Part shown: piece after piece, positions 15,941 to 61,448 of the stretch
How positions within the stretch are numbered: the stretch's first letter is position 1
How the letters are laid out: every line of letters begins with the position of its first letter
IMG/VR virus record: IMGVR_UViG_3300043178_000025
Direction: 5' to 3' (one strand)
Length of the DNA: 64,000 nt
Source of the DNA: a virus
Position numbers and translations under genes: made by a program
The notes under the pieces: model-generated
Database searches by the model: none
Seen by the model: only the letters and a program-made list of their open reading frames with translations
Told to the model about the DNA's origin: nothing

Positions 15941-16470
15941 TCGGCGCGTTCTTCGTTGACGGCGCGAGCATCTCGATCAGCCTGACGCAGCAGGGCAGGC
16001 CGCTTCTGCCGAAACGTATCGACTACGACCGCCTGCCCATTGTCGTGCGTGCGATCATCCGGGAGAGGGAGAAGCTGCCGCAGCCCATTGAGTGGCGCTT
16101 CAAGAACTACTACGTCGCCTACAAGGGCGTCGAGGACGTGGGCAAAGACACGTTCATTGAGAAGATCAAGCGGTGGGGCTGGTCCGTGCAGGAATTCATG
16201 GCGAAGCAGTACCGCGACGGCCATTGGCGCGACAAGCAGGTGGACATCGCTCTGGCTCTGGACGCCTACGATGTGATCCGGTCGGGCAGCGCGGGCGTGA
16301 TCGTCATGGGCACGCACGACAGCGACTTCGCCGCGCTCATGAAGAAGCTGCCGGGGAACGTCGTGAAGTACGTGATCGGCTGGTCGGACATGATGGCCCG
16401 GGAGCTTCGAGAGGTAGCGAAGCCGATCTACCTCGACGAGATATACCAGAAGATCAAGTACGAGCCGTGA
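15937..16470 (+). CDS. NYN-domain (LabA/DUF88 PIN-like) ribonuclease
   Basis: FFVDGAS, KQVDIALALD, THDSDFAAL. Confidence 0.85.
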   Translation: MIGAFFVDGASISISLTQQGRPLLPKRIDYDRLPIVVRAIIREREKLPQPIEWRFKNYYVAYKGVEDVGKDTFIEKIKRWGWSVQEFMAKQYRDGHWRDKQVDIALALDAYDVIRSGSAGVIVMGTHDSDFAALMKKLPGNVVKYVIGWSDMMARELREVAKPIYLDEIYQKIKYEP

Positions 16471-16754
16471 AGTACGTCATCGTCATCAATAGGTGGGGTT
16501 GCCGCTGGTACTTCACAGGCTCTACGCTCAACGAGATGTGGAAGCAGAAGGACGGCGTGCTTCCGACGTTTAGCAGAGCGAAGCGGTATGGCACGAAGGA
16601 GTTCGCGGAGCGGGCTGCGTTCAAGCTCTCCGTTCAGTTGCTCTCGGAAACTGGAGCGACAACGTGCTGGATCGAAACGGTTGCCGACGCGGAGAAGTAC
16701 GAGCGGCGTGAAGCTCGGACATTCCGTGAGGACTTGAAGAAGGGTCTGCGATGA
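16467..16754 (+). CDS. small protein, paralog family A
   Basis: KYVIVI..AKRYGTKEFAERAAFKL. Confidence 0.65.
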   Translation: MKYVIVINRWGCRWYFTGSTLNEMWKQKDGVLPTFSRAKRYGTKEFAERAAFKLSVQLLSETGATTCWIETVADAEKYERREARTFREDLKKGLR

Positions 16755-16837
16755 CCACTACGCATAGTGTTTTTGGGCGAGCACCGCCTCAACAGGTCGT
16801 GGGCCAAAAGTTTTTGCGCGACGACCTCGAAAGGTGC

Positions 16838-16865
16838 TTGACTCCGTGAGATCGCCGCGTAGAAT
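16838..16865 (+). promoter_or_regulatory. sigma70-type promoter
   Basis: TTGACT-16 nt-TAGAAT in an intergenic gap. Confidence 0.65.
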
Positions 16866-16985
16866 TCGGATCGCCTCGTCGTCGGACGACTGGAGACCGT
16901 TCGGCGTGTCCCAAACATTCGTGTCCCGGTCCTGCGGTGCCGCATCGACATCTCCACGTACCGCTGGGCCGCGTCGGAGGGAGCC

Positions 16986-17501
16986 ATGTCTGAGTTTCAG
17001 GTAGACTTCAAGGGTGTCGTAGACCGTTCGGACTTCGAGGGCGGAACCTACAGCTTCGAGGTCTCGAAGACCGAGGGTGACAGCGGGCCGAACGGCCCGT
17101 ACATCCGGATCACGCTGACCTTCATCGACGGGAAGTACGCGGGCCTGCACACCGAGGACATCGTGAGCCTCGCGCCGAAGGCGCTCTGGCGGGCGAAAGC
17201 GTTTCTCAAGGCCCTCGGCTACGAAGTGCCGGACGGTCCGTTCCGCTTCAAGAGCGAGGACCTCGTCGGCCTGCGCTTCAAGGCCGTGTGCAACCGCGAG
17301 GTCGATCCGGCGGGGAAGTATCCGCCGAAGCTGCGCGTCAATGAGTACCACCTGATCGACTGGGTCGAACCGCCTTCGCAGAGCCCGGCCCCGGAGGGAG
17401 GGTCTGCTGCGCCCAGCGCGGGAGGGAACGGGGAGGCCGTTGCGCCGCCCCCGCCGCCCCAGCCGCCTGTGGCGGTGAGCCGCCCCAAGCTCAAGGTGTA
17501 G
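16986..17501 (+). CDS. DUF669-like OB-fold ssDNA-binding protein
   Basis: GGAGG RBS; EGGTYSFEV..GPYIRITLTF..ALWRAKAFLKALG..EDLVG; Pro-rich tail. Confidence 0.7.
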   Translation: MSEFQVDFKGVVDRSDFEGGTYSFEVSKTEGDSGPNGPYIRITLTFIDGKYAGLHTEDIVSLAPKALWRAKAFLKALGYEVPDGPFRFKSEDLVGLRFKAVCNREVDPAGKYPPKLRVNEYHLIDWVEPPSQSPAPEGGSAAPSAGGNGEAVAPPPPPQPPVAVSRPKLKV

Positions 17502-38365: not shown

Positions 38366-38443
38366 GCTCCCGTAGCTCAGTTGGTAGAGCGGCGCTCTCT
38401 AAAAGCGCGTCAGTCGTGGGTTCGAGCCCCATCGGGAGCACCA
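38366..38443 (+). tRNA. tRNA with anticodon CUA (amber suppressor)
   Basis: Acceptor GCTCCCG/CGGGAGC, D arm GCTC-AGTTGGTA-GAGC, anticodon stem GCGCT/AGCGC with loop CT-CTA-AA, T loop TTCGAGC, encoded CCA. Confidence 0.92.
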
Positions 38444-38927: not shown

Positions 38928-39007
38928 GGGCAGGTAGCTCAGAGAAAGAGTGACCGCCAGTCCGGACTGGCGGGAGGTCGGAGGTTTAAGTCCTCCCCTG
39001 CCCACCA
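38928..39007 (+). tRNA. atypical tRNA (Pro-like 3' half) with palindromic enlarged anticodon arm
   Basis: GGGCAGG/CCTGCCC acceptor + A + CCA; T arm GGAGG-TTTAAGT-CCTCC; anticodon arm CCGCCAGTCCGGACTGGCGG. Confidence 0.65.
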
Positions 39008-52640: not shown

Positions 52641-53127
52641 GTCCAGCTTCAACCCCTGAGCACCCGGCGTCCTCATCAACCGTGGCCGTGCGCCACGGAC
52701 GATCCGACTGAAGCCGCAGGCGGCTCTGGCTCGCATCAGGAAGGCCGCACACGAGGTCTACGACTTCCTGCGGGCTTCCGGGGCTCCTGTGCCCGCCCGG
52801 GCGCGTCTTTTCATCGACTGCGAGGTCGTTCGCAAGCATCGGGCGGGTGGCGACTTGCGTGCGTTCTTCCACGTCGGCCACCGCTCGGCGTGGACGATCT
52901 GCGCCGCTCACGAAGCCGGATACCTGCCGGACAATCATCTCTATGGTCTTGTCCTGCATGAGTTTGGGCATCCTCTCGCCTACAAGTTCTGGGGGCGCTC
53001 CAGACAGCAGGACGCGGACCGCGCCATCTTCGAGACCACGGAGGTCCCGATCCTCTACAAGAGCGGGCTCATCCTCCAATGGATCACCTCGGGCGACGTG
53101 CAGGCGATCAAAAGCTGCCGCGTGTAA
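52618..53127 (+). CDS. HExxH zinc-metallopeptidase-like protein; frame extends to ATG 52618 across an in-frame TGA (52657-52659), otherwise starts at GTG 52789
   Basis: GLVLHEFGHPL motif. Confidence 0.55.
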
Positions 53128-53559: not shown

Positions 53560-53934
53560 CGAAAGAACCCCGGCTATGGGGGCCGAGGTTCTCATCGTAA
53601 CACCACGGGTAGTCGAGCTATCCGTGGGAGGAATTTGGTAGCGGGACTACGAGTTGCACGTAGCTTACCAGTTTATGAGGCTGGTGAGGCGACTGCGCCT
53701 ACCCTCCCGCAGTATGGTCCCCTCACTCGGAGTCGCACCGAGCCCGGCGCGTTAGGACCGCGCCATGCGTCTGCTACACCATGAGGGAACGGCTGGGTCC
53801 CACTCTACTTGCCCCCGAGGACCCTTCGGTGTTACTTCGAGGCCACCCTACCTTCCGCCCGGCCCGCCGTCAAGATTTTGGTCGCACCCCCAAGCTACTA
53901 CGTTAGACACTTGAACAGGTGACACGGGTGACAC

Positions 53935-54225: not shown

Positions 54226-54498
54226 TCACCGTCTGCGGATGTAGCGCGGGTTGTCCGGCATCTCGCCGTTCCCGCCGATCTGCTGCTCTGCACGCCTCCG
54301 GGGTTTCAACTGCCCGAGGGCCTTGAGGTGCTCGAACGCCTGATTGAGTACGTCGCCCACCATGAAGAGTTCGTTCGCCTCAATCTTCATCCAGACCATG
54401 CCCACGAGCGGGATGCCCGTCTGAATGCCGATCTCGATGTGCCCGTCGTCGTACCCGATGCGGGCCGTGACCTTCTCGCTCATCTTCTTCTCGATCAC
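54226..54498 (-). CDS. hypothetical protein
   Basis: 90-aa ORF, GTGA overlap with upstream gene. Confidence 0.6.
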   Translation of the reverse strand: MIEKKMSEKVTARIGYDDGHIEIGIQTGIPLVGMVWMKIEANELFMVGDVLNQAFEHLKALGQLKPRRRAEQQIGGNGEMPDNPRYIRRR

Positions 54499-55433
54499 AG
54501 GCCCTCCATCGCGACTTCGGCGGGCACCACGAGCCCGTAGAAGAGGTCCTCCCGCATGGGACGAATGTGGGAGATGGAATCATACCGGATCGGAGCCATG
54601 TGGAAAAGCACCGTCTTCATCAACGTGAACCAGACGCTCTTCACGGGGAGGTCTGGCTCCTCCTTCGTGAGGAGCTTGTGGTACGCCCTCAAGAGGCCCG
54701 CCATCGACTTCAGGGGCTGTGGCTCCGCGAACTCCATCATGTGCATCCGCCCGTACTTCTTCCGCCGGGCCGGGGGCATCTTGATCCCCAGCTTGTAGAG
54801 CTTCTTGTAGCCGTCGAAGGGCATGAAGTAGGCGTCCTTCGAGATGTGGCTCGGGTGGACCGCCGTGAGGTCGATCAGGTCCTCGATGTCGATGAACGTC
54901 ATCGGCTCCGGGAACCAGACGAGCATGGAGCGGTCCCTGCCGAGGCTCTTCACGAACCGGACGGCGTGATCGCGCCCCTTCGTATCGACGAGTTCGATGG
55001 GCTGGCCCTTCTTGAGCGACGACTGCGGGACCTCCAGCCTGCTCCACGAGACCTGAGTGGTGGTGACGTAGTATTTTCCACCGCGCTCGACGAGGCTGTC
55101 GTCGCGCCTCAGCTTCTCCAGAGCGAAGTCCTTCACGGGGTCGCCTGTCCGTGCGGGCGCTTTCCACGGCCAGTCGTACCGCTTCATCACTTCTTCCCAC
55201 CCCGAGGGCCTGTAGAAGTCCTCGAACGGGATGGGGCTCGCGAGCTTCACGCGGAACTGGGCCTGTACGCCACCGAAGACTTGCTTCTCAATGACGCCCG
55301 CGCCGAGTTCCGGGATCGTGACCTTCACACCCTTGGCCGTGTAGCCCTTCGGAGCCCGCGTCGGATTCCTGCGATGCCCGAGCCGCCGACGGATGGCGGG
55401 GTGCTTGAGCGACAGGGGTCGGTAGAGCCTCAT
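54495..55433 (-). CDS. hypothetical protein with basic N-terminal peptide ending in RRNP
   Basis: 312-aa ORF, ATGA coupling. Confidence 0.75.
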   Translation of the reverse strand: MRLYRPLSLKHPAIRRRLGHRRNPTRAPKGYTAKGVKVTIPELGAGVIEKQVFGGVQAQFRVKLASPIPFEDFYRPSGWEEVMKRYDWPWKAPARTGDPVKDFALEKLRRDDSLVERGGKYYVTTTQVSWSRLEVPQSSLKKGQPIELVDTKGRDHAVRFVKSLGRDRSMLVWFPEPMTFIDIEDLIDLTAVHPSHISKDAYFMPFDGYKKLYKLGIKMPPARRKKYGRMHMMEFAEPQPLKSMAGLLRAYHKLLTKEEPDLPVKSVWFTLMKTVLFHMAPIRYDSISHIRPMREDLFYGLVVPAEVAMEGL

Positions 55434-55685: not shown

Positions 55686-56027
55686 TCAGAAGAGGAACGT
55701 CCTGTGCAGCGGCCCCGGTTGAAGGGCAGGTGTCCTATAGTATACATGGCCCACCTCGCGCCCGTCCACATAGAGCCGTGCGCCGTGGAGATTCCTCCAG
55801 TTCCGAAGCGTATCCTTCAAGACCTCGAAGCTGGCGAAGTCCGTTCGGAAGCGATTGCCATTCTCGAACTCGATGTAGAGGTCGCCCTCATGATGCGGAC
55901 GACGCTCAATGGCGACGAACTTCACGCGATCCTTTCCAACGGCCTGCCGGATTCCACGAAGATTCCGGCTCTGGCTCACGATGTTGCCGTGACGGTCCCA
56001 GATCGAGAGCATCCGTGGCCGGGCCAT
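55686..56027 (-). CDS. hypothetical protein
   Basis: 113 aa; ends RTFLF. Confidence 0.7.
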   Translation of the reverse strand: MARPRMLSIWDRHGNIVSQSRNLRGIRQAVGKDRVKFVAIERRPHHEGDLYIEFENGNRFRTDFASFEVLKDTLRNWRNLHGARLYVDGREVGHVYYRTPALQPGPLHRTFLF

Positions 56028-56798
56028 CTACCGCCTCGTCCAGAAATCCGGAGCGCCCGCTCCTTTTGCGACACGGATGATTTCCTCGATGGCCGCGTAC
56101 CACGACCGCACGAGCCGCGTGAGCGGTGGCCGTTCGATCCTCGCGGCGTGGACGAGACCCCACATGATCCCTGAGCTTTTGGCCGCGCCAATCCAGTCTC
56201 GACGCTGAAGCTGCCTGTACGCGATGCCGTACACACGACGGAAGAGCTTCGACGCCTCTTTCCGTTCCGCAGGGGTGTGAAGGTTGTAGCGATGCTTCGG
56301 ATTGAAGAGCGTCCTCTGTCCCGCGAGCCCGGGCTTCGGCGGCGGGGGCGGCGGGGGTGGACGCCAGCGACGGCGGCGCTCATACCCGGGGAAGACGATT
56401 CCGGGCCGTCCACGCTCGCGCAGCAGCCGGACTCGACCGCCCGCAACGACGGCACCGCCCGGCCAGTCCTGCTCCAGCTTGGTCTCGTAGTTCCAGATAC
56501 GCCACTTCCCGCGCTTGCTGTAGATGCGCGTCGCCACGCCCATCTGTTCGAGAACCTCGTTGAGGACGTTCTTCGTGAGCATGGTCAGCCAGCCCGCGTC
56601 CGTGATGTAGACGCCCCTTCCCCGGCGCTCCGCGACGAGATTGCCCCACACGTAGAGGCTCTGCCCGTCCGTCGAGTAGCGATGGCGGCGTGTCCCGCCG
56701 TGCATGGGAGTCGTCAGGGCCAGACGCTTCGACTTCCCCGCGAGAAAGGCGCGAACGATCTGCCCCTGATGTCCGCTCTGGCCGTAGCTCCCGATCAT
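56028..56798 (-). CDS. basic modular protein with QRTLFNP motif
   Basis: 256 aa; poly-Pro linker before the motif. Confidence 0.75.
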   Translation of the reverse strand: MIGSYGQSGHQGQIVRAFLAGKSKRLALTTPMHGGTRRHRYSTDGQSLYVWGNLVAERRGRGVYITDAGWLTMLTKNVLNEVLEQMGVATRIYSKRGKWRIWNYETKLEQDWPGGAVVAGGRVRLLRERGRPGIVFPGYERRRRWRPPPPPPPPKPGLAGQRTLFNPKHRYNLHTPAERKEASKLFRRVYGIAYRQLQRRDWIGAAKSSGIMWGLVHAARIERPPLTRLVRSWYAAIEEIIRVAKGAGAPDFWTRR

Positions 56799-58807
56799 CT
56801 GCCCCTCGCGTGCGCGGCCTTCGCCTGCGCGAGCGCCGTGACCCTGTTCGCGGCGCTGATCTTGTAGACGCCTCCGACCACCGTCGCAGGAAGCGTGTCG
56901 ATGGACTCACTCGCCGTCCAGAACTCGCCACGCTGCGGGTACGGAGGCCGGAAGCGGGCGACGAAGTAGGTCTTCGACCGCCGGACGCGGCGAGGGTTGA
57001 CGCGAGAAGCCGACTGAAGCAACGCTAGAATTTCCGTAGCCGGGTGACCGAAGAGCCGTGCACGCTCCGAATGAGAAAGGCTATCCCATCGAATAAGGAG
57101 CGTCCTTGACACGACCGGAGTAAGCCCATCGACGACTCTTCCGTAATGCACGGAATCCCGCAGCTTTTGAACGATCCGAGGCTCCTTGTACAGAGGTCCG
57201 ATGTGTACGCCGTAGAGCGACCTGTAACGCGCACGGTGAGCTTCGGCAGCTTCCTGAAGCAGCCGTTTGTCGTCGCCAATCAACGTCCGCAGATACTTGT
57301 ACAGTTGCGCGAACCCAACATGGGGATTCATAAGCCTGACGGCATCTTTCGGAGAAATGGGATTCATCTTCGCCTTGACCTTCTTCACGCACCGCTCGTA
57401 CTTAGCGGTGCCGCGCCCGAGTCCCACGGCAGCGCAGATCGCCCACGGGTTACGGGGCTTCGGGTTGTTCTTCGTTTTCATAGCCTCCCTCGACCAAGCC
57501 TCGGGCCCCTGTTCCAGAAGATACTTGAGAGCGTAGAGCCTGTCCACGGCATCCTTGAAGCGCCACTCCCCGACAGCGATGGCCGCATCACGAGCGATGC
57601 GTTGTACGGCGTTGAAGACAGGCAATCTCCTGTGTTCGGCAGCGTAGAGACGACCGAGACGTTTCAGCCTGCGAAGTGCATCCTCCGGAGACCCGCCGAA
57701 GTGCTTCGCACGAACGTAGGGATCGCCCTTCTCCCTCATGTAGTTCCAGTTCGTGATGACCTGCTCACGCACTTCACGCTCAAACCCGTAGGCGTTCGTG
57801 AGCCAACGCAGAGTCTTCTTGACCTTTTCAAGCACGTACTGGTATCCGGCTTTGTGACGCTCCGCGTGCTCCGGGTACTCGCTCATGCGATGAGTCAGGT
57901 CGCCGACGTGCTCCGCAGTTGTTCCGTACAGTTGACTGATCCCCGCCATCTGGATTCGCAGCATGGCGCTTTCCGGCCTGCCCCGTTGAGCTTCGGCGAG
58001 CTTCGCGAATCTCGGGTCGGCGTTCCTGCGGGCGTTGAAGAGCATCGGCATGGGCAGCTTGAGACGACGGTACGTTTTCAGCGCCTCCTCCTTCGCCTCC
58101 GCGAACGACGCCGCAGACTTCCGAATGCCAACCTGCTTCCCGACCTGTATCCACCAGTACCAGACGTTTCCGTCGAGGCTTTTGATGACGTACAGGTGGT
58201 GTCCGGAGGCCATTCGCCGACGCCACATCCTAGAATAGACCCGCTCCCATGGATCGCCGTTCCGATTGAAGAGCATGGTCTGTCCGCGTCGCACGAACTC
58301 GCGCAGCCGACTCTCGGTCATGCTGATCGCCTCACGCTTCGTATGGAAGACTTTCGCCCACAGGTTCTTGAAGTGCTCGCCCGTCGCCGTCCTCGGATCA
58401 CCCATGATGGTGTAGATGCGGCCCAAGTAACGGTTCCTCCGGAGCGAAGAGTCTACGCTCACGTAGGCGTGGTACTGAGCCGTCGCCATCGTCCATACTG
58501 TTCGGCTCTCGTTGAAAAGAGTCTTCGGCGGATGCTTCACATAACGCCTGTGCGCTGCGAGCGCCTTCTCCCCGGCCTTCTCCATCGAACTCGGCTCCGT
58601 TCCCGTCGCCACGACCATAAAAAGTCGCTCCGGAGGATCAACGCCAAGTTGCTGGTATATCTTACGGCGGGGATTCCGCACAAGCGCACGCCACAGAATC
58701 TCCCGGCCCGGGTACGCGATGACTTCCACGAACCCGTTCTCAAGGTGCATGACCCACTTCTTCAGGGCCTTGCCTTCGAGCTTGTACCAGCGGTTGAGTT
58801 CTGTCAT
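56795..58807 (-). CDS. modular LFN/NP-punctuated protein (putative polyprotein)
   Basis: 670 aa; TLFNE, MLFNR, MLFNA, VFNA and several xNP motifs. Confidence 0.8.
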   Translation of the reverse strand: MTELNRWYKLEGKALKKWVMHLENGFVEVIAYPGREILWRALVRNPRRKIYQQLGVDPPERLFMVVATGTEPSSMEKAGEKALAAHRRYVKHPPKTLFNESRTVWTMATAQYHAYVSVDSSLRRNRYLGRIYTIMGDPRTATGEHFKNLWAKVFHTKREAISMTESRLREFVRRGQTMLFNRNGDPWERVYSRMWRRRMASGHHLYVIKSLDGNVWYWWIQVGKQVGIRKSAASFAEAKEEALKTYRRLKLPMPMLFNARRNADPRFAKLAEAQRGRPESAMLRIQMAGISQLYGTTAEHVGDLTHRMSEYPEHAERHKAGYQYVLEKVKKTLRWLTNAYGFEREVREQVITNWNYMREKGDPYVRAKHFGGSPEDALRRLKRLGRLYAAEHRRLPVFNAVQRIARDAAIAVGEWRFKDAVDRLYALKYLLEQGPEAWSREAMKTKNNPKPRNPWAICAAVGLGRGTAKYERCVKKVKAKMNPISPKDAVRLMNPHVGFAQLYKYLRTLIGDDKRLLQEAAEAHRARYRSLYGVHIGPLYKEPRIVQKLRDSVHYGRVVDGLTPVVSRTLLIRWDSLSHSERARLFGHPATEILALLQSASRVNPRRVRRSKTYFVARFRPPYPQRGEFWTASESIDTLPATVVGGVYKISAANRVTALAQAKAAHARGR

Positions 58808-60195
58808 CAGAACATCATCCTCGGCGTGCGCCGGACCGCCTCCTCATAGGCTTCCTGTCCGCGCTCGTATGCCTTCATGTGGCTCGCCGAAACTCCTGCT
58901 GCGACCGGAGCTTTCTGCCCGCGAAGGAAGACGTGCCACAGATAGACACAACGACGCCGACCCCTGCGCCCACGCAGAACGCCTTCGACCCGAATCTCTC
59001 CACGCGGCATCGTCATGATGTTCGGGTTGAAAAGCATCCTCGGCTTCTTCCGTACCAGCCGACTGTATGCCTTCTTCGCCTCGGCACGCGCTTGCGCCCG
59101 CGTCCGGGCCAGCCCGGACGCGGCGGGCCCCCAGAAGCCGCGCTGTCCGGCATGTTCGCCGTGGGTGAATGTGGTCAGAAGGTAGACCCGCCATTCGTAG
59201 AGCGCCGGATGCCGGGACGTTGGTGCCCGCCACTCAATGACGATCTTCCCCTGCGGCAGGATCGACTGCTCCGGGTTGAAGAGCATCTCCGGATGCTTTG
59301 GCGGGAGAAAGTGCGGGACTTCCCGCTCTGCATCGCGCTTGGCTTCAGGAATGCTGTTCCCGAAGCCGCGAGCCATGATCTTCTCGTCATGCCTCCTGTA
59401 CAGAAACCACTTCCACCATCGAATGGCGGCACGTCCGCTCGCGCCGGGAGCACGTTCCGGCTCCATCATGATGAAGTAGTCGCCGAGTTCGGCCCAGAAC
59501 CGTCCCTTGCCCGGATACCAGCGGTACTTGTACTTGCGAGCCCTCGGATTGAAAAGCATCCGCAAGAAGCGCGTTTCGTAGTACGCCTGAGCCGTCATCT
59601 TCGCCTGCTCGCGAGTATCGACGATGCCTTCCTTCAGCGTGTCGGCAGTCTCTCTATTCATAACCTTCCAGAGCCATCTGCTCTCGATAGGAACGACCAT
59701 GAGCACGGCCTTCTTCGGGCTCGCATAGATTTCGCTGCGCCCAACCGGATACCAGCGGTACTTCGGATTGAAGAGCATCCGAAACTTCTTCGGTTTGAGG
59801 CGCTCCTTGATGTTCGCCGCCCGCATCGCCCTCTGAGCGACTTTCTTGCTCGGATACGGTCCGACGACGTTGATCCACGGAAACCGCATGGCGCTTCGCG
59901 CCTTCTGAAGCTCCCACGAGCCGTCCTCACGCTGCCCGACCCACCAGCGGGCAGGTTGAAGGCGGGAGTTGAAGAGCGTGCGTTCGCCCGCGAGAGTTGA
60001 CGGACGCCACGCATCGGGCCAACGTCCATCCTTGGCTTCCTCCATGAGGTAATGAAGCCTGTGATACTCGCGGGTCGTCAGGCCGAACTTCTCCGCGAAG
60101 TCGATAGCGTCATGAGCAGGACTGCTCCGTTCAATGGCCGATCCACGCCGTTCAGCCCAAGCTCGAAAGGCTTTTATGTGATCCACGAGCTTCAT
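58807..60195 (-). CDS. modular LFNP-punctuated protein (putative polyprotein)
   Basis: Start corrected to ATG 60195 (ATGA overlap); TLFNS, MLFNP x4, ends RMMF*. Confidence 0.82.
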   Translation of the reverse strand: MKLVDHIKAFRAWAERRGSAIERSSPAHDAIDFAEKFGLTTREYHRLHYLMEEAKDGRWPDAWRPSTLAGERTLFNSRLQPARWWVGQREDGSWELQKARSAMRFPWINVVGPYPSKKVAQRAMRAANIKERLKPKKFRMLFNPKYRWYPVGRSEIYASPKKAVLMVVPIESRWLWKVMNRETADTLKEGIVDTREQAKMTAQAYYETRFLRMLFNPRARKYKYRWYPGKGRFWAELGDYFIMMEPERAPGASGRAAIRWWKWFLYRRHDEKIMARGFGNSIPEAKRDAEREVPHFLPPKHPEMLFNPEQSILPQGKIVIEWRAPTSRHPALYEWRVYLLTTFTHGEHAGQRGFWGPAASGLARTRAQARAEAKKAYSRLVRKKPRMLFNPNIMTMPRGEIRVEGVLRGRRGRRRCVYLWHVFLRGQKAPVAAGVSASHMKAYERGQEAYEEAVRRTPRMMF

Positions 60196-61448
60196 CGCTG
60201 CACCGCGTTGAAGAGCATTCGCGTATCCGTATCGAGGCCCCTGAGCCTCTTCACGTAAGCGACCTCGGCGAAAGCCTGCGCTTTTCTCAGGCTGTTGGCG
60301 CGGCCTTTGAACACGATCTTGTATTTGCTGCCGACAAGGATTCCGTAGTGGAACTTGAAGGGCGGCTCTTCCGTGACGACCATGAGCGTGACGCCAGCCT
60401 TCGGCTTCGCTTCCCACGTCACGGTCGAGGTCTTCTTCCACTTCAGCTTCGGCTTCCAGCGCAGAGGGTTGAAGAGCGTCCTCTGCGCGACACGCATGAG
60501 CATTCGTCCAGCGACGAACTTCACGCTCGACAGCGGCCATGCTCTCCCTTGATCGAGCGAGTAGCCTTCCCCTCCCGGCTTGTACACGGTCCAGTAGTAG
60601 AAGCGTTGGTACGCAGGACTTCTCTGGATTTTCGCCCTGAAGCCTTCGTAGTCCGCGACATAGCCACCCTTGACGCGCTGCCACTTCGGTTCCTTCGGGT
60701 TGAAAAGACTTAGCCCACCCTGCCACCGTTCCACGGCCCGCTGCGCTTCACGGGCGGAACCCTCGTCGCCCGACGCCGCGAGCCCGCCGTCGCTCTTCCT
60801 CCAGATCGACCAGCGGTACGCCTTTCCCCTGTACTCGCTGCCGTCCAGCGTCGCCCTGAACCGGGGATGCTCTCCGTGATGCGTGTACAGGTAGAACGAG
60901 TCCTTCTTCCACGTCCAGCGTGCAGGGTTGAACATCATGCGGGCCCGTGGCGGCGCTTTCCAGAGGTCCCCGATCCCGTGCTTTTTGATCCGGGCCAGAA
61001 TGTCCCGCGCTCTCGCGACGGCCTTCCTCTGCCCGTCTTTGGGGTTGCGAGCGTCGCCTCCAGCGATCCAGCGTCCGGTGTCGCTGAAGAGGATGTAGTA
61101 TCTGAACTCAGCGGTGGGACCGCGCCCGTACTGCTCGACTCTGGCCTTGATGGGCCCGAAGCTCCTCCCCCACCATACGCCCCAGTCCTCGCCCCACCTG
61201 CGCCAGAGCGCAGGATTGAGCTTCGTCGGGTAGACACCGATGGACTGACCGATCAAGCTCTTGAGAGCCGAGCGCCAGTTGCGCTTGAACTCCGACCTGA
61301 TCCGCTCGATCTCGAAGTGGTAGATCGGACGGACATCCCAGCGGTAGCGCCCCCGGTCCGTCTCGATCTCAAGAACGAGCGTGTTCTTCTCGTAGCCGAC
61401 GATCCGTGCAGAGCGCACCGGGTTCTCAAGAGCCCGGAGTGCGCCCAT
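60192..61448 (-). CDS. modular LFNP-punctuated protein (putative polyprotein)
   Basis: 418 aa; MMFNP, SLFNP, TLFNP, MLFNA. Confidence 0.82.
   Translation of the reverse strand: MGALRALENPVRSARIVGYEKNTLVLEIETDRGRYRWDVRPIYHFEIERIRSEFKRNWRSALKSLIGQSIGVYPTKLNPALWRRWGEDWGVWWGRSFGPIKARVEQYGRGPTAEFRYYILFSDTGRWIAGGDARNPKDGQRKAVARARDILARIKKHGIGDLWKAPPRARMMFNPARWTWKKDSFYLYTHHGEHPRFRATLDGSEYRGKAYRWSIWRKSDGGLAASGDEGSAREAQRAVERWQGGLSLFNPKEPKWQRVKGGYVADYEGFRAKIQRSPAYQRFYYWTVYKPGGEGYSLDQGRAWPLSSVKFVAGRMLMRVAQRTLFNPLRWKPKLKWKKTSTVTWEAKPKAGVTLMVVTEEPPFKFHYGILVGSKYKIVFKGRANSLRKAQAFAEVAYVKRLRGLDTDTRMLFNAVQR

Follow-up and report, generated by a model that had tools for sequence, protein, structure and literature searches.

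Junction peptide of the g5 to g2 proteins

The DNA analysed here is a 64,000-nt stretch (the window) of IMG/VR virus record IMGVR_UViG_3300043178_000025, taken from a contig of at least 86 kb. At 62% GC, it is apparently a piece of the genome of an uncultured phage. Small plus-strand genes take up about 52 kb and converge with a minus-strand block read from 64000 to about 54200. Five genes at the distal end of this block, g5 to g1, abut or overlap by 1 to 4 nt (Table 1), and the proteins encoded by g5, g4, g3 and g2 carry a short repeated peptide whose full form is [KR]-P-R-[MT]-L-F-N-P. The gene organisation is prokaryotic, with Shine-Dalgarno sites, ATGA-coupled genes and tRNAs, and a quick check for stop-codon recoding gave no reason to leave translation table 11. 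The longest open reading frame of g4 begins at 60726, but its true start is the ATG at 60195, which overlaps the g5 stop codon (ATGA). The array proteins have an isoelectric point (pI) of 10.5 to 11.4 and contain 18–20% Arg plus Lys and 2.5–4.8% Trp, in line with the richness in these residues described in the initial annotation.

The initial annotation, made from the letters of the DNA alone, had listed 14 copies of an [LMV]FN tripeptide in four genes. The recount gave the same number (four in g5, five in g4, four in g3 and one in g2), whereas 20,000 shufflings of the g5-g2 proteins averaged 0.27 and never exceeded 4. All other frames of the window contain only five such tripeptides. Thirteen of the 14 sites fit [RK]-[MT]-L-F-N. 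The remaining one, L-P-V-F-N-A at residues 394-400 of g3, may not be a junction because the domain around it is conserved as a single block in all relatives. The motif is real but longer than first written, extending from a Pro at -4 to a Pro at +2. Over 69 distinct sites (59 between modules and 10 before a four-residue tail) the Phe at position 0 and the Asn at +1 are invariant (69/69 each). Leu is found at -1 in 64 sites, Met (39) or Thr (20) at -2, Arg at -3 in 51 and Pro at -4 in 37, while +2 is Pro in 35 and Ala in 12. Prolines therefore bracket the core on both sides. All 35 Pro at +2 fall among the 59 internal sites; at the other 24 internal sites the Asn is followed by A, S, E, R, G, H or D. 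A full-text literature search for the motif string returned one irrelevant match.

Selection on the junction motif acts at the protein level. The motif codons for Arg, Thr, Leu, Phe, Asn and Pro differ synonymously, both within the window and in relatives of 55–59% GC: Leu is encoded by CTC, CTT, CTG or TTG, Phe by TTC or TTT, Asn by AAC or AAT and Arg by six codons, with the amino acids fixed. Because the codons vary in this way, the constraint is on the peptide and not on the DNA, as had been argued from the window. The near-identical DNA copies noted before are present as well: GTTGAAGAGCAT occurs exactly at 58034, 59275 and 60207, and five more copies with one mismatch are found in the cluster, as against 0.29 expected in the window. 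The GC content at third codon positions (GC3) of the genome is 0.74–0.89.

Table 1. Positions of the array genes, their modules and junction peptides, and of related features (window coordinates unless a contig is named).
Feature	Position	Strand	Size	Description
g5	60192-61448	minus	418 aa	conserved N-terminal domain (residues 1-77); four sheet+helix modules; tail AVQR
g5 sheet+helix modules	60927-61217, 60699-60926, 60468-60698, 60207-60467	minus
g5 junction peptides	60924-60944, 60696-60716, 60465-60485, 60204-60224	minus
g4	58807-60195	minus	462 aa	helical module (residues 1-76); five sheet+helix modules; end ...PRMMF (half motif)
g4 sheet+helix modules	59767-59967, 59548-59766, 59275-59547, 59026-59274, 58810-59025	minus
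g4 junction peptides	59965-59985, 59764-59784, 59545-59565, 59272-59292, 59023-59043	minus
g3	56795-58807	minus	670 aa	three sheet+helix modules, then conserved helical-plus-C-terminal block (residues 259-670)
g3 sheet+helix modules	58511-58807, 58265-58510, 58034-58264	minus
g3 junction peptides	58508-58528, 58262-58282, 58031-58051	minus		doubtful variant LPVFNA at 57608-57628
g2	56028-56798	minus	256 aa	Kyano_Gp96-like domain (residues 43-106), poly-Pro linker, conserved 90-aa C-terminal domain
g2 junction peptide	56298-56318	minus
g1	55686-56027	minus	113 aa	basic single domain; end ...TFLF; conserved in L002
Boundary cassette	window 60192-60206; L001 11207-11221; L002 1604-1618; L005 6377-6391			ends first cluster gene
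HExxH protein	52789-53127	plus	112 aa	candidate small zincin metallopeptidase
P0016 Cys/His/Asp domain	L003 10790-11347		~186 aa	residues 264-449
Syntenic late proteins of distant relatives	L007 11496-15191; L008 12384-17233

Modules, relatives and gene ends

A single profile matches twelve units of 67 to 99 residues in the window, four in g5, five in g4 and three in g3. The modules have a pI of 9.8 to 11.7. The shared W-x-W-x-V strand and G-x-A-x-S helix of the initial annotation were both recovered in the consensus of 31 and of 44 aligned modules, the helix in the form G-x-A-x-S-x-x-x-A-x-x-x-A. One module with both flanking peptides (g4 residues 132-225) was modelled with AlphaFold using the 44-sequence family alignment. 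The model has a mean predicted local distance difference test score (pLDDT) of 83 and shows an antiparallel sheet of five strands (17-20, 23-26, 32-39, 42-49 and 55-61) followed by a C-terminal helix (64-79), with a core pLDDT of 84–97. Both junction peptides are coil (the 10-residue blocks that hold them have pLDDT of about 61–63), and AlphaFold leaves the motif undocked although it is fully conserved across the 44 aligned sequences. The connector is short, with about 12 to 15 residues from the module helix to the first strand of the next module. The junction peptide is predicted to lie between the folded units and outside the fold. Whether the motif is an integral part of a known repeat fold can be answered in the negative as far as prediction goes, given the coil and the unrelated flanks.

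The closest folds to the module model are MmoD (Z 7.8) and AP2/GCC-box domains (Z 5.3–6.0). A Foldseek search gave a DUF1508 cluster (E 1.8e-3, template modelling (TM) score 0.57). WGR and DUF4102 entries matched too, and many uncharacterised phage proteins of 65 to 120 aa are equally good. By these models the module has a common small fold, with scores in the range of common arrangements. Like DUF1508/YegP, AP2/GCC-box, integrase arm-binding (DUF4102) and MmoD proteins, the modelled module has an antiparallel sheet and then a single C-terminal helix; unlike them, the modules have no sequence match in Pfam, PHROGs or NCBIfam. Scanning g1-g7 and their neighbours against the same three libraries gave no useful family match, apart from a weak Kyano_Gp96/phrog_554 match in g2 and, in g7, a faint one to an "internal virion protein". 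Nucleic-acid binding by the modules is plausible. We infer it only from the basic charge and a predicted sheet-plus-helix fold weakly like AP2, DUF1508 or integrase-arm domains, and charge and fold may also suggest some other host-directed role.

At least six types of module, unrelated to one another, have the peptide at their borders: the sheet+helix type, two helical types, a KKGYRYKL type seen in relatives, the Kyano_Gp96-like domain and the g2 C-terminal domain. The large helical block of g3 is among the units bounded by it. In the array protein P0009, two copies of the motif lie 11 residues apart with no domain in between. Since unrelated units are flanked and a double copy exists, the peptide is an autonomous connector element and not part of one repeat fold. 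A kinship of the modules with about 22 small early genes ("family A") was considered and rejected: the module profile matches only g5, g4 and g3, and the next best match has E = 0.33.

The profile of 31 modules was also searched against 1.84 billion representative proteins. It gave 39 matches, about 20 of them with the motif. The motif-bearing contigs are the window's own, a 107-kb Logan contig, the 19-kb L001 (binned with a Nitrospira metagenome-assembled genome), the 24-kb L002 and the 81-kb L005/L012 (both from the Joint Genome Institute), the short fragments L010 and L011, and the more distant 40.7-kb L003. The INPHARED phage collection (50,697 records) gave no match at the DNA or protein level, and IMG/VR yielded no relatives. 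By these searches, the array proteins appear to come from a small clade of uncultured phages.

The modules were then typed by sequence with the motif removed. Their order and gene assignment are different in every one of the five genomes compared, with 4 to 6 modules per protein, and the changes fall at the motif. Module G lies within g4 in the window and adjoins the core of g3 in L002. In both the window and L011, module H is the first module of g3, right after an upstream ...R-M-M-F* or ...R-T-L-F* end; in L001 it is fused through the full motif. P0013 corresponds to P0008 with whole modules missing and the remaining ones joined at the motif. It follows from these three comparisons that a junction and a coupled gene boundary are interchangeable. 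Gain, loss and rearrangement of modules take place precisely at the peptide, and the arrays evidently evolve by recombination at the repeat.

Two distant contigs, L007 and L008, encode homologues of g2, g3 and their neighbours. These lack L-F-N but are rich in x-N-P, often as [KR]-[KR]-N-P. In L007, Asn stands before Pro in 15/80 cases in the late proteins and 5/94 in the early ones (p = 0.008); the corresponding figures for L008 are 22/78 and 4/57 (p = 0.002). For comparison, the g5-g2 proteins have Asn before Pro in 17/48 cases and the rest of the window in 14/197. At the joint that corresponds to the one in g2, L008 carries one ...T-M-F-N-P-P. L-F-N-P may have arisen by sharpening of an older N-P joint, or else N-P may be no more than a capping pair favoured in the array proteins and their counterparts in relatives. 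Repeated K-N-P-L-T-x-x-E-A helix starts are found in L008 (15206-16003), where 6/10 Asn precede Pro. One further element, N-P-W-A-[IV]-C ... E-R-C-V ... K-[KM]-N-P, is common to g3 (residues ~447-492; 57330-57470) and a 405-aa L008 protein (16016-17233) and may be a small Cys-pair structural element.

The ends of the genes behave in two ways. Ten proteins end four residues past the Asn, with x-V-R-R, AVQR, VGAR or AGTR, and their +2 residue is never Pro; the g5 end at 60192, earlier placed four residues after the motif, is indeed of this kind. Five natural C-termini end in ...[MTF]-[LM]-F, and none in ...LFN. The truncated ends ...RMMF* of g4 and ...TFLF* of g1 that had been pointed out are real, the g1 end having only a loose likeness to the half motif. 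The boundary at 58807 does fall inside the motif: the g4 stop and g3 start overlap there, and the stop sits at the Asn position. The Asn is invariant when the chain continues and dropped at true C-termini, which is the pattern expected of a residue needed only before a peptide bond. This pattern suggests that the Asn is needed for what happens to the junction bond, and that the P-R-M-L-F part may have a role in the final product. If the bond is cleaved, a cut at F|N would fit the natural ends slightly better than one at N|P; the LFN|P cut proposed initially is not favoured over it.

The DNA of the four-residue tail (AAC nnG GTG CGG CGA TGA) is conserved in four genomes, whatever module precedes it or gene follows it. 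Within it, 5 nt separate a GGTG element from the overlapping start, which is ATGA or GTGA. On the minus strand of the window it reads GCG GTG CAG CGA followed by TGA, with GGTG as a Shine-Dalgarno-like element and the g4 ATG beginning at 60195. The tail is best explained as a putative translational-coupling cassette (ribosome binding plus overlapping start). A role of the four residues as a P' requirement of a protease was rejected on account of this conserved DNA cassette. A second gene-end tail, ...A-H-A-R-G-R*, closes g3 and its homologues (window 56795-56830; L012 17930-17963). In L005/L012 it also ends an unrelated sigma-70-like protein inserted at that place, which suggests another portable junction cassette ahead of the g2-type gene.

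Candidate enzymes and neighbouring genes

The initial annotation had named an HExxH protein, encoded on the plus strand, as a candidate protease. We found 19 homologues with HEFGH, making a family of about 20 members of 112 to 187 aa in which His28, His31, Cys11, Cys38 and D75-A-D77 are also invariant. The protein is 84–85% identical in L002 and L005. There is no Pfam match. In a model with pLDDT 79 the HEFGH lies on a helix (48-68). Foldseek matches to this model are weak (E 0.05–0.5, TM 0.40–0.47), and the named ones are nearly all zincins: SprT-like, M48, DUF45, DUF4157, Tox-MPTase4, selecase and Wss1. From motif and model the protein looks like a small zincin. In every case its gene closes the early block and faces the end of the late operon.

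A second candidate is found in P0016, a distant member encoded on L003. P0016 has three modules with [KR]-[FY]-[ML]-F-N and then, directly after the last motif, a 186-aa domain. A Cys (K-x-C-[YF]-x-N-[AS]-Q), a His (H-[AG]-[WY]) and an Asp (V-D-V-T) are conserved in homologues of this domain. It has no Pfam match, its nearest clusters are unnamed phage proteins of 155 to 177 aa, and its fold neighbours are transglutaminase-like and lasso-peptide-protease-like families (TM 0.44–0.48). The model is suggestive of a cis-peptidase. P0016 lies among early/regulatory genes, adjoining a sigma-70-like gene, and from this location the module family is not confined to the late/structural operon. The location also bears on the proposal of the initial annotation that the products may be packaged in the virion. 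A Sigma70_r2 gene is also present inside the L-F-N cluster of L012 (17328-17963); its homologue on L003 (9276-9977), 41% identical, is immediately upstream of P0016. No homologue of this Sigma70_r2 gene was found in the window. None of the prohead protease families S77, S78, S80, S14 and S49 was found among about 37 window proteins scanned, and no capsid or portal gene is recognisable in the DNA examined.

The plus-strand genes of the window include those for an SNF2 helicase, a DUF3987 primase-helicase-like protein, two ParB-like proteins, a DNA methylase, ThyX, NADAR, an HD protein and a serine recombinase. ARAGORN reported a tRNA with the amber-reading anticodon CUA at 38366-38443, an odd tRNA-like gene with a four-base anticodon call at 38928-39007 and a tRNA-Arg(CCU) at 53715-53788. 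Two genes downstream of the cluster, a 312-aa protein (54495-55433) shows 52–76% identity in every relative, even the distant L008. Many of its His, Ser, Asp and Lys residues are invariant, and it matches no family. The ESM Atlas gave nothing usable for this protein or for g3 residues 259-670. Upstream in the late operon of L012 (3944-9478) there is an 1844-aa protein with zero N-P dipeptides and no family match.

Interpretation of the junction peptide

Polyvalent proteins of phages and conjugative elements combine unrelated domains in one polypeptide, are mosaic and rapidly reshuffled and often lie beside late genes, and proteolytic release of their domains has been proposed (Iyer et al., 2017, PMC5512222). 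Polyvalent proteins and P1 DdrB/DarA are processed before packaging and provide a precedent for processing (PMC5512222). The array proteins resemble them in having several unrelated domains per chain and mosaic architectures among relatives. Recognisable enzymatic and anti-restriction domains define the polyvalent group, and the Pfam, PHROGs and NCBIfam scans gave no MuF, ArdC-N, MPTase, ParB-like DNase, ART or other such domain in g1-g5. Polyvalent proteins have no common junction peptide, whereas here small, non-enzymatic-looking basic domains are found with a strict heptapeptide at every joint.

T4 IPI-III and Alt and the phiKZ inner-body proteins are basic, late-gene products that are cut by a prohead protease at a short repeated motif and delivered with the DNA. 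Those substrates carry [LI]-x-E or [SAG]-x-E and an N-terminal capsid-targeting peptide; the motif described here is unrelated and has no Glu, and no shared N-terminal leader or targeting peptide is seen on g5, g4 and g3. Polyvalent proteins and T4 internal-protein processing are the nearest described concept, and the arrays depart from both in the defining domains and motifs. A long strict recognition peptide at every joint between products that fold independently is known from potyvirus NIa, as in tobacco etch virus (TEV; E-N-L-Y-F-Q|S), from African swine fever virus (ASFV) pp220/pp62 and from adenovirus core precursors, and the adenovirus and ASFV polyprotein products are basic core proteins. 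The arrays differ from these eukaryotic-virus polyproteins in proteases and motifs, in their prokaryotic host and in a precursor that is split over several coupled genes. They are also unlike 2A/StopGo peptides (D-[VI]-E-x-N-P-G-P, eukaryotic ribosomes), with no G-P after N-P, other upstream residues and prokaryotic gene organisation.

Polyprotein processing is the single best reading of the junction peptide, and we put it forward tentatively, as a reading that stops somewhat short of being probable. Each of g5, g4, g3 and g2 would be a string of small and strongly basic domains that fold on their own and are joined by short exposed P-R-[M/T]-L-F-N-P connectors. The domains of the window would be twelve sheet-plus-helix modules together with helical, Kyano_Gp96-like and other ones. 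We infer that such polyprotein-like precursors may be cut at or beside the Asn by a site-specific endopeptidase or, less likely, by the Asn itself, for which a small share is included in our estimate. About twenty separate small proteins would be released, each probably keeping a C-terminal ...P-R-M-L-F. The overlapping stop and start codons would couple translation, so that fused and split modules would be made in fixed proportion, and with the junction repeated, recombination between copies would add, delete and reorder modules in frame. Processing is favoured because of the autonomy of the peptide, the behaviour of the Asn, the equivalence of joint and gene boundary, and the Cys/His/Asp domain present in cis in one member. 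The zincin-like HExxH protein conserved in the clade may also be counted for it.

Several observations weigh against processing. The protease-cut precursors of the initial annotation are borne out in their protein-level selection, predicted independently folding units and separable cassettes, but no protease, neither the HExxH protein nor the P0016 domain, is linked to the motif. The HExxH protein named initially does look zincin-like, with an invariant HEFGH; its gene, however, is at the same position and equally conserved in L007 and L008, where there are no L-F-N arrays, and for this reason it is not specifically associated with the motif. The P0016 domain has no homologue in the window by tblastn and by a profile of three homologues. 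L-F-N was not seen in the other late proteins at hand, and P0005, P0014 and P0015, which start at the motif or with a short leader plus the motif, were set aside as artefacts of truncated contigs or miscalled starts. A pLDDT near 61 is no strong evidence of disorder. To our knowledge the motif fits no phage maturation rule (T4 [LI]-x-E, phiKZ [SAG]-x-E). Many proteases cut poorly where a Pro lies beside the presumed scissile bond or one residue away from it, and a hydrophobic M-L-F core with basic and Pro flanks is equally typical of a binding peptide.

This last point leads to an uncut short linear docking motif, in which the connectors and the C-terminal ...P-R-M-L-F would bind the same pocket on a partner. 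The M-L-F core with its basic -3 residue, the Pro at -4 and +2 and the predicted coil between domains would all suit such a role, and so would the missing protease; the five natural C-termini that keep the P-R-M-L-F half imply that this half may have its own function in the finished protein. Pentapeptides rich in Leu and Phe with basic flanks are typical of DnaK-binding sites, and hydrophobic tails at the C-terminus are typical of cargo or PDZ-type ligands. Docking can hardly explain, however, why the Asn is invariant where the chain continues and dispensable at termini. That fused and split modules swap freely suggests that the covalent link matters little, and no partner can be named. We regard docking as unlikely; the partner could be a capsid-interior or portal protein, a DnaK-type chaperone or a host target, and the chains would be multivalent or recruited whole. 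Clamp-binding (Q-L-x-L-F) and PDZ-ligand readings were considered and provisionally set aside; the motif has no Gln. It is improbable that the peptide is a structural connector, with M-L-F packed on the neighbouring module as an edge strand or plug and Asn-Pro as a cap, so that a semi-rigid chain works at full length. The short linker, the N-P capping pair enriched throughout the syntenic late proteins, and a ...R-M-L-F end that would be natural if the stretch belongs to the last domain agree with this. Yet the same peptide follows unrelated folds, including the poly-Pro linker behind the Kyano_Gp96-like domain, two copies in P0009 lie only 11 residues apart, other copies have nothing after them, and AlphaFold gives undocked coil.

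Two further explanations carry very little weight. Self-cleavage, a sub-case of processing in which the Asn side chain would attack its own carbonyl at N|P by Asn-lyase-type chemistry, has a slim chance. It would account for the invariant Asn, for the Pro that often follows and for the protease that was not found. But 24 of the 59 internal sites have no Pro there, the motif is in a flexible connector and not in a strained turn within a fold, and no natural C-terminus ends in ...LFN. In the Asn peptide lyases FlhB/YscU (N|PTH) and reovirus mu1 (N42|P43) the bond is in a conserved turn of a folded domain; the array sites are in predicted inter-domain coil and have no T-H after N-P. Least credible of all is a DNA-level recombination site for cassette shuffling with the peptide incidental to it. 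Module indels and reorderings do join exactly at the motif, and the 12-nt core is found at eight places in the cluster with at most one mismatch. On the other hand, every motif codon varies synonymously within and between genomes, and favoured codons at this GC3 alone explain the near-identical copies. The DNA crossover site of the initial annotation may be kept as a by-product; its DNA is not conserved beyond the needs of the protein.

Multi-site polyprotein processing is a hallmark of eukaryotic viruses, and from phages it is known mainly in the form of head proteins trimmed at motifs of three residues. Chains of shuffled mini-domains with a strict heptapeptide at every joint would be unusual. 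New here are this heptapeptide, the tiny basic modules and one "polyprotein" spread over several coupled genes. It is possible, though rather doubtful, that this small phage clade has a true polyprotein strategy in which at least a dozen tiny basic domains per genome are freed by a highly specific putative endopeptidase whose site doubles as a recombination point. If so, the protease/site pair would be new and of TEV-like specificity, and in-frame recombination would let the phage reshuffle its repertoire. Cleavage would mean that phages can produce and exchange many small "ORFan-sized" proteins as cassettes, and the site-specific protease and its substrate could be a possible tool. If the peptide is not cleaved, it would be a new repeated docking peptide with a partner worth finding. 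Either way, the motif is a simple search handle for the module protein family.

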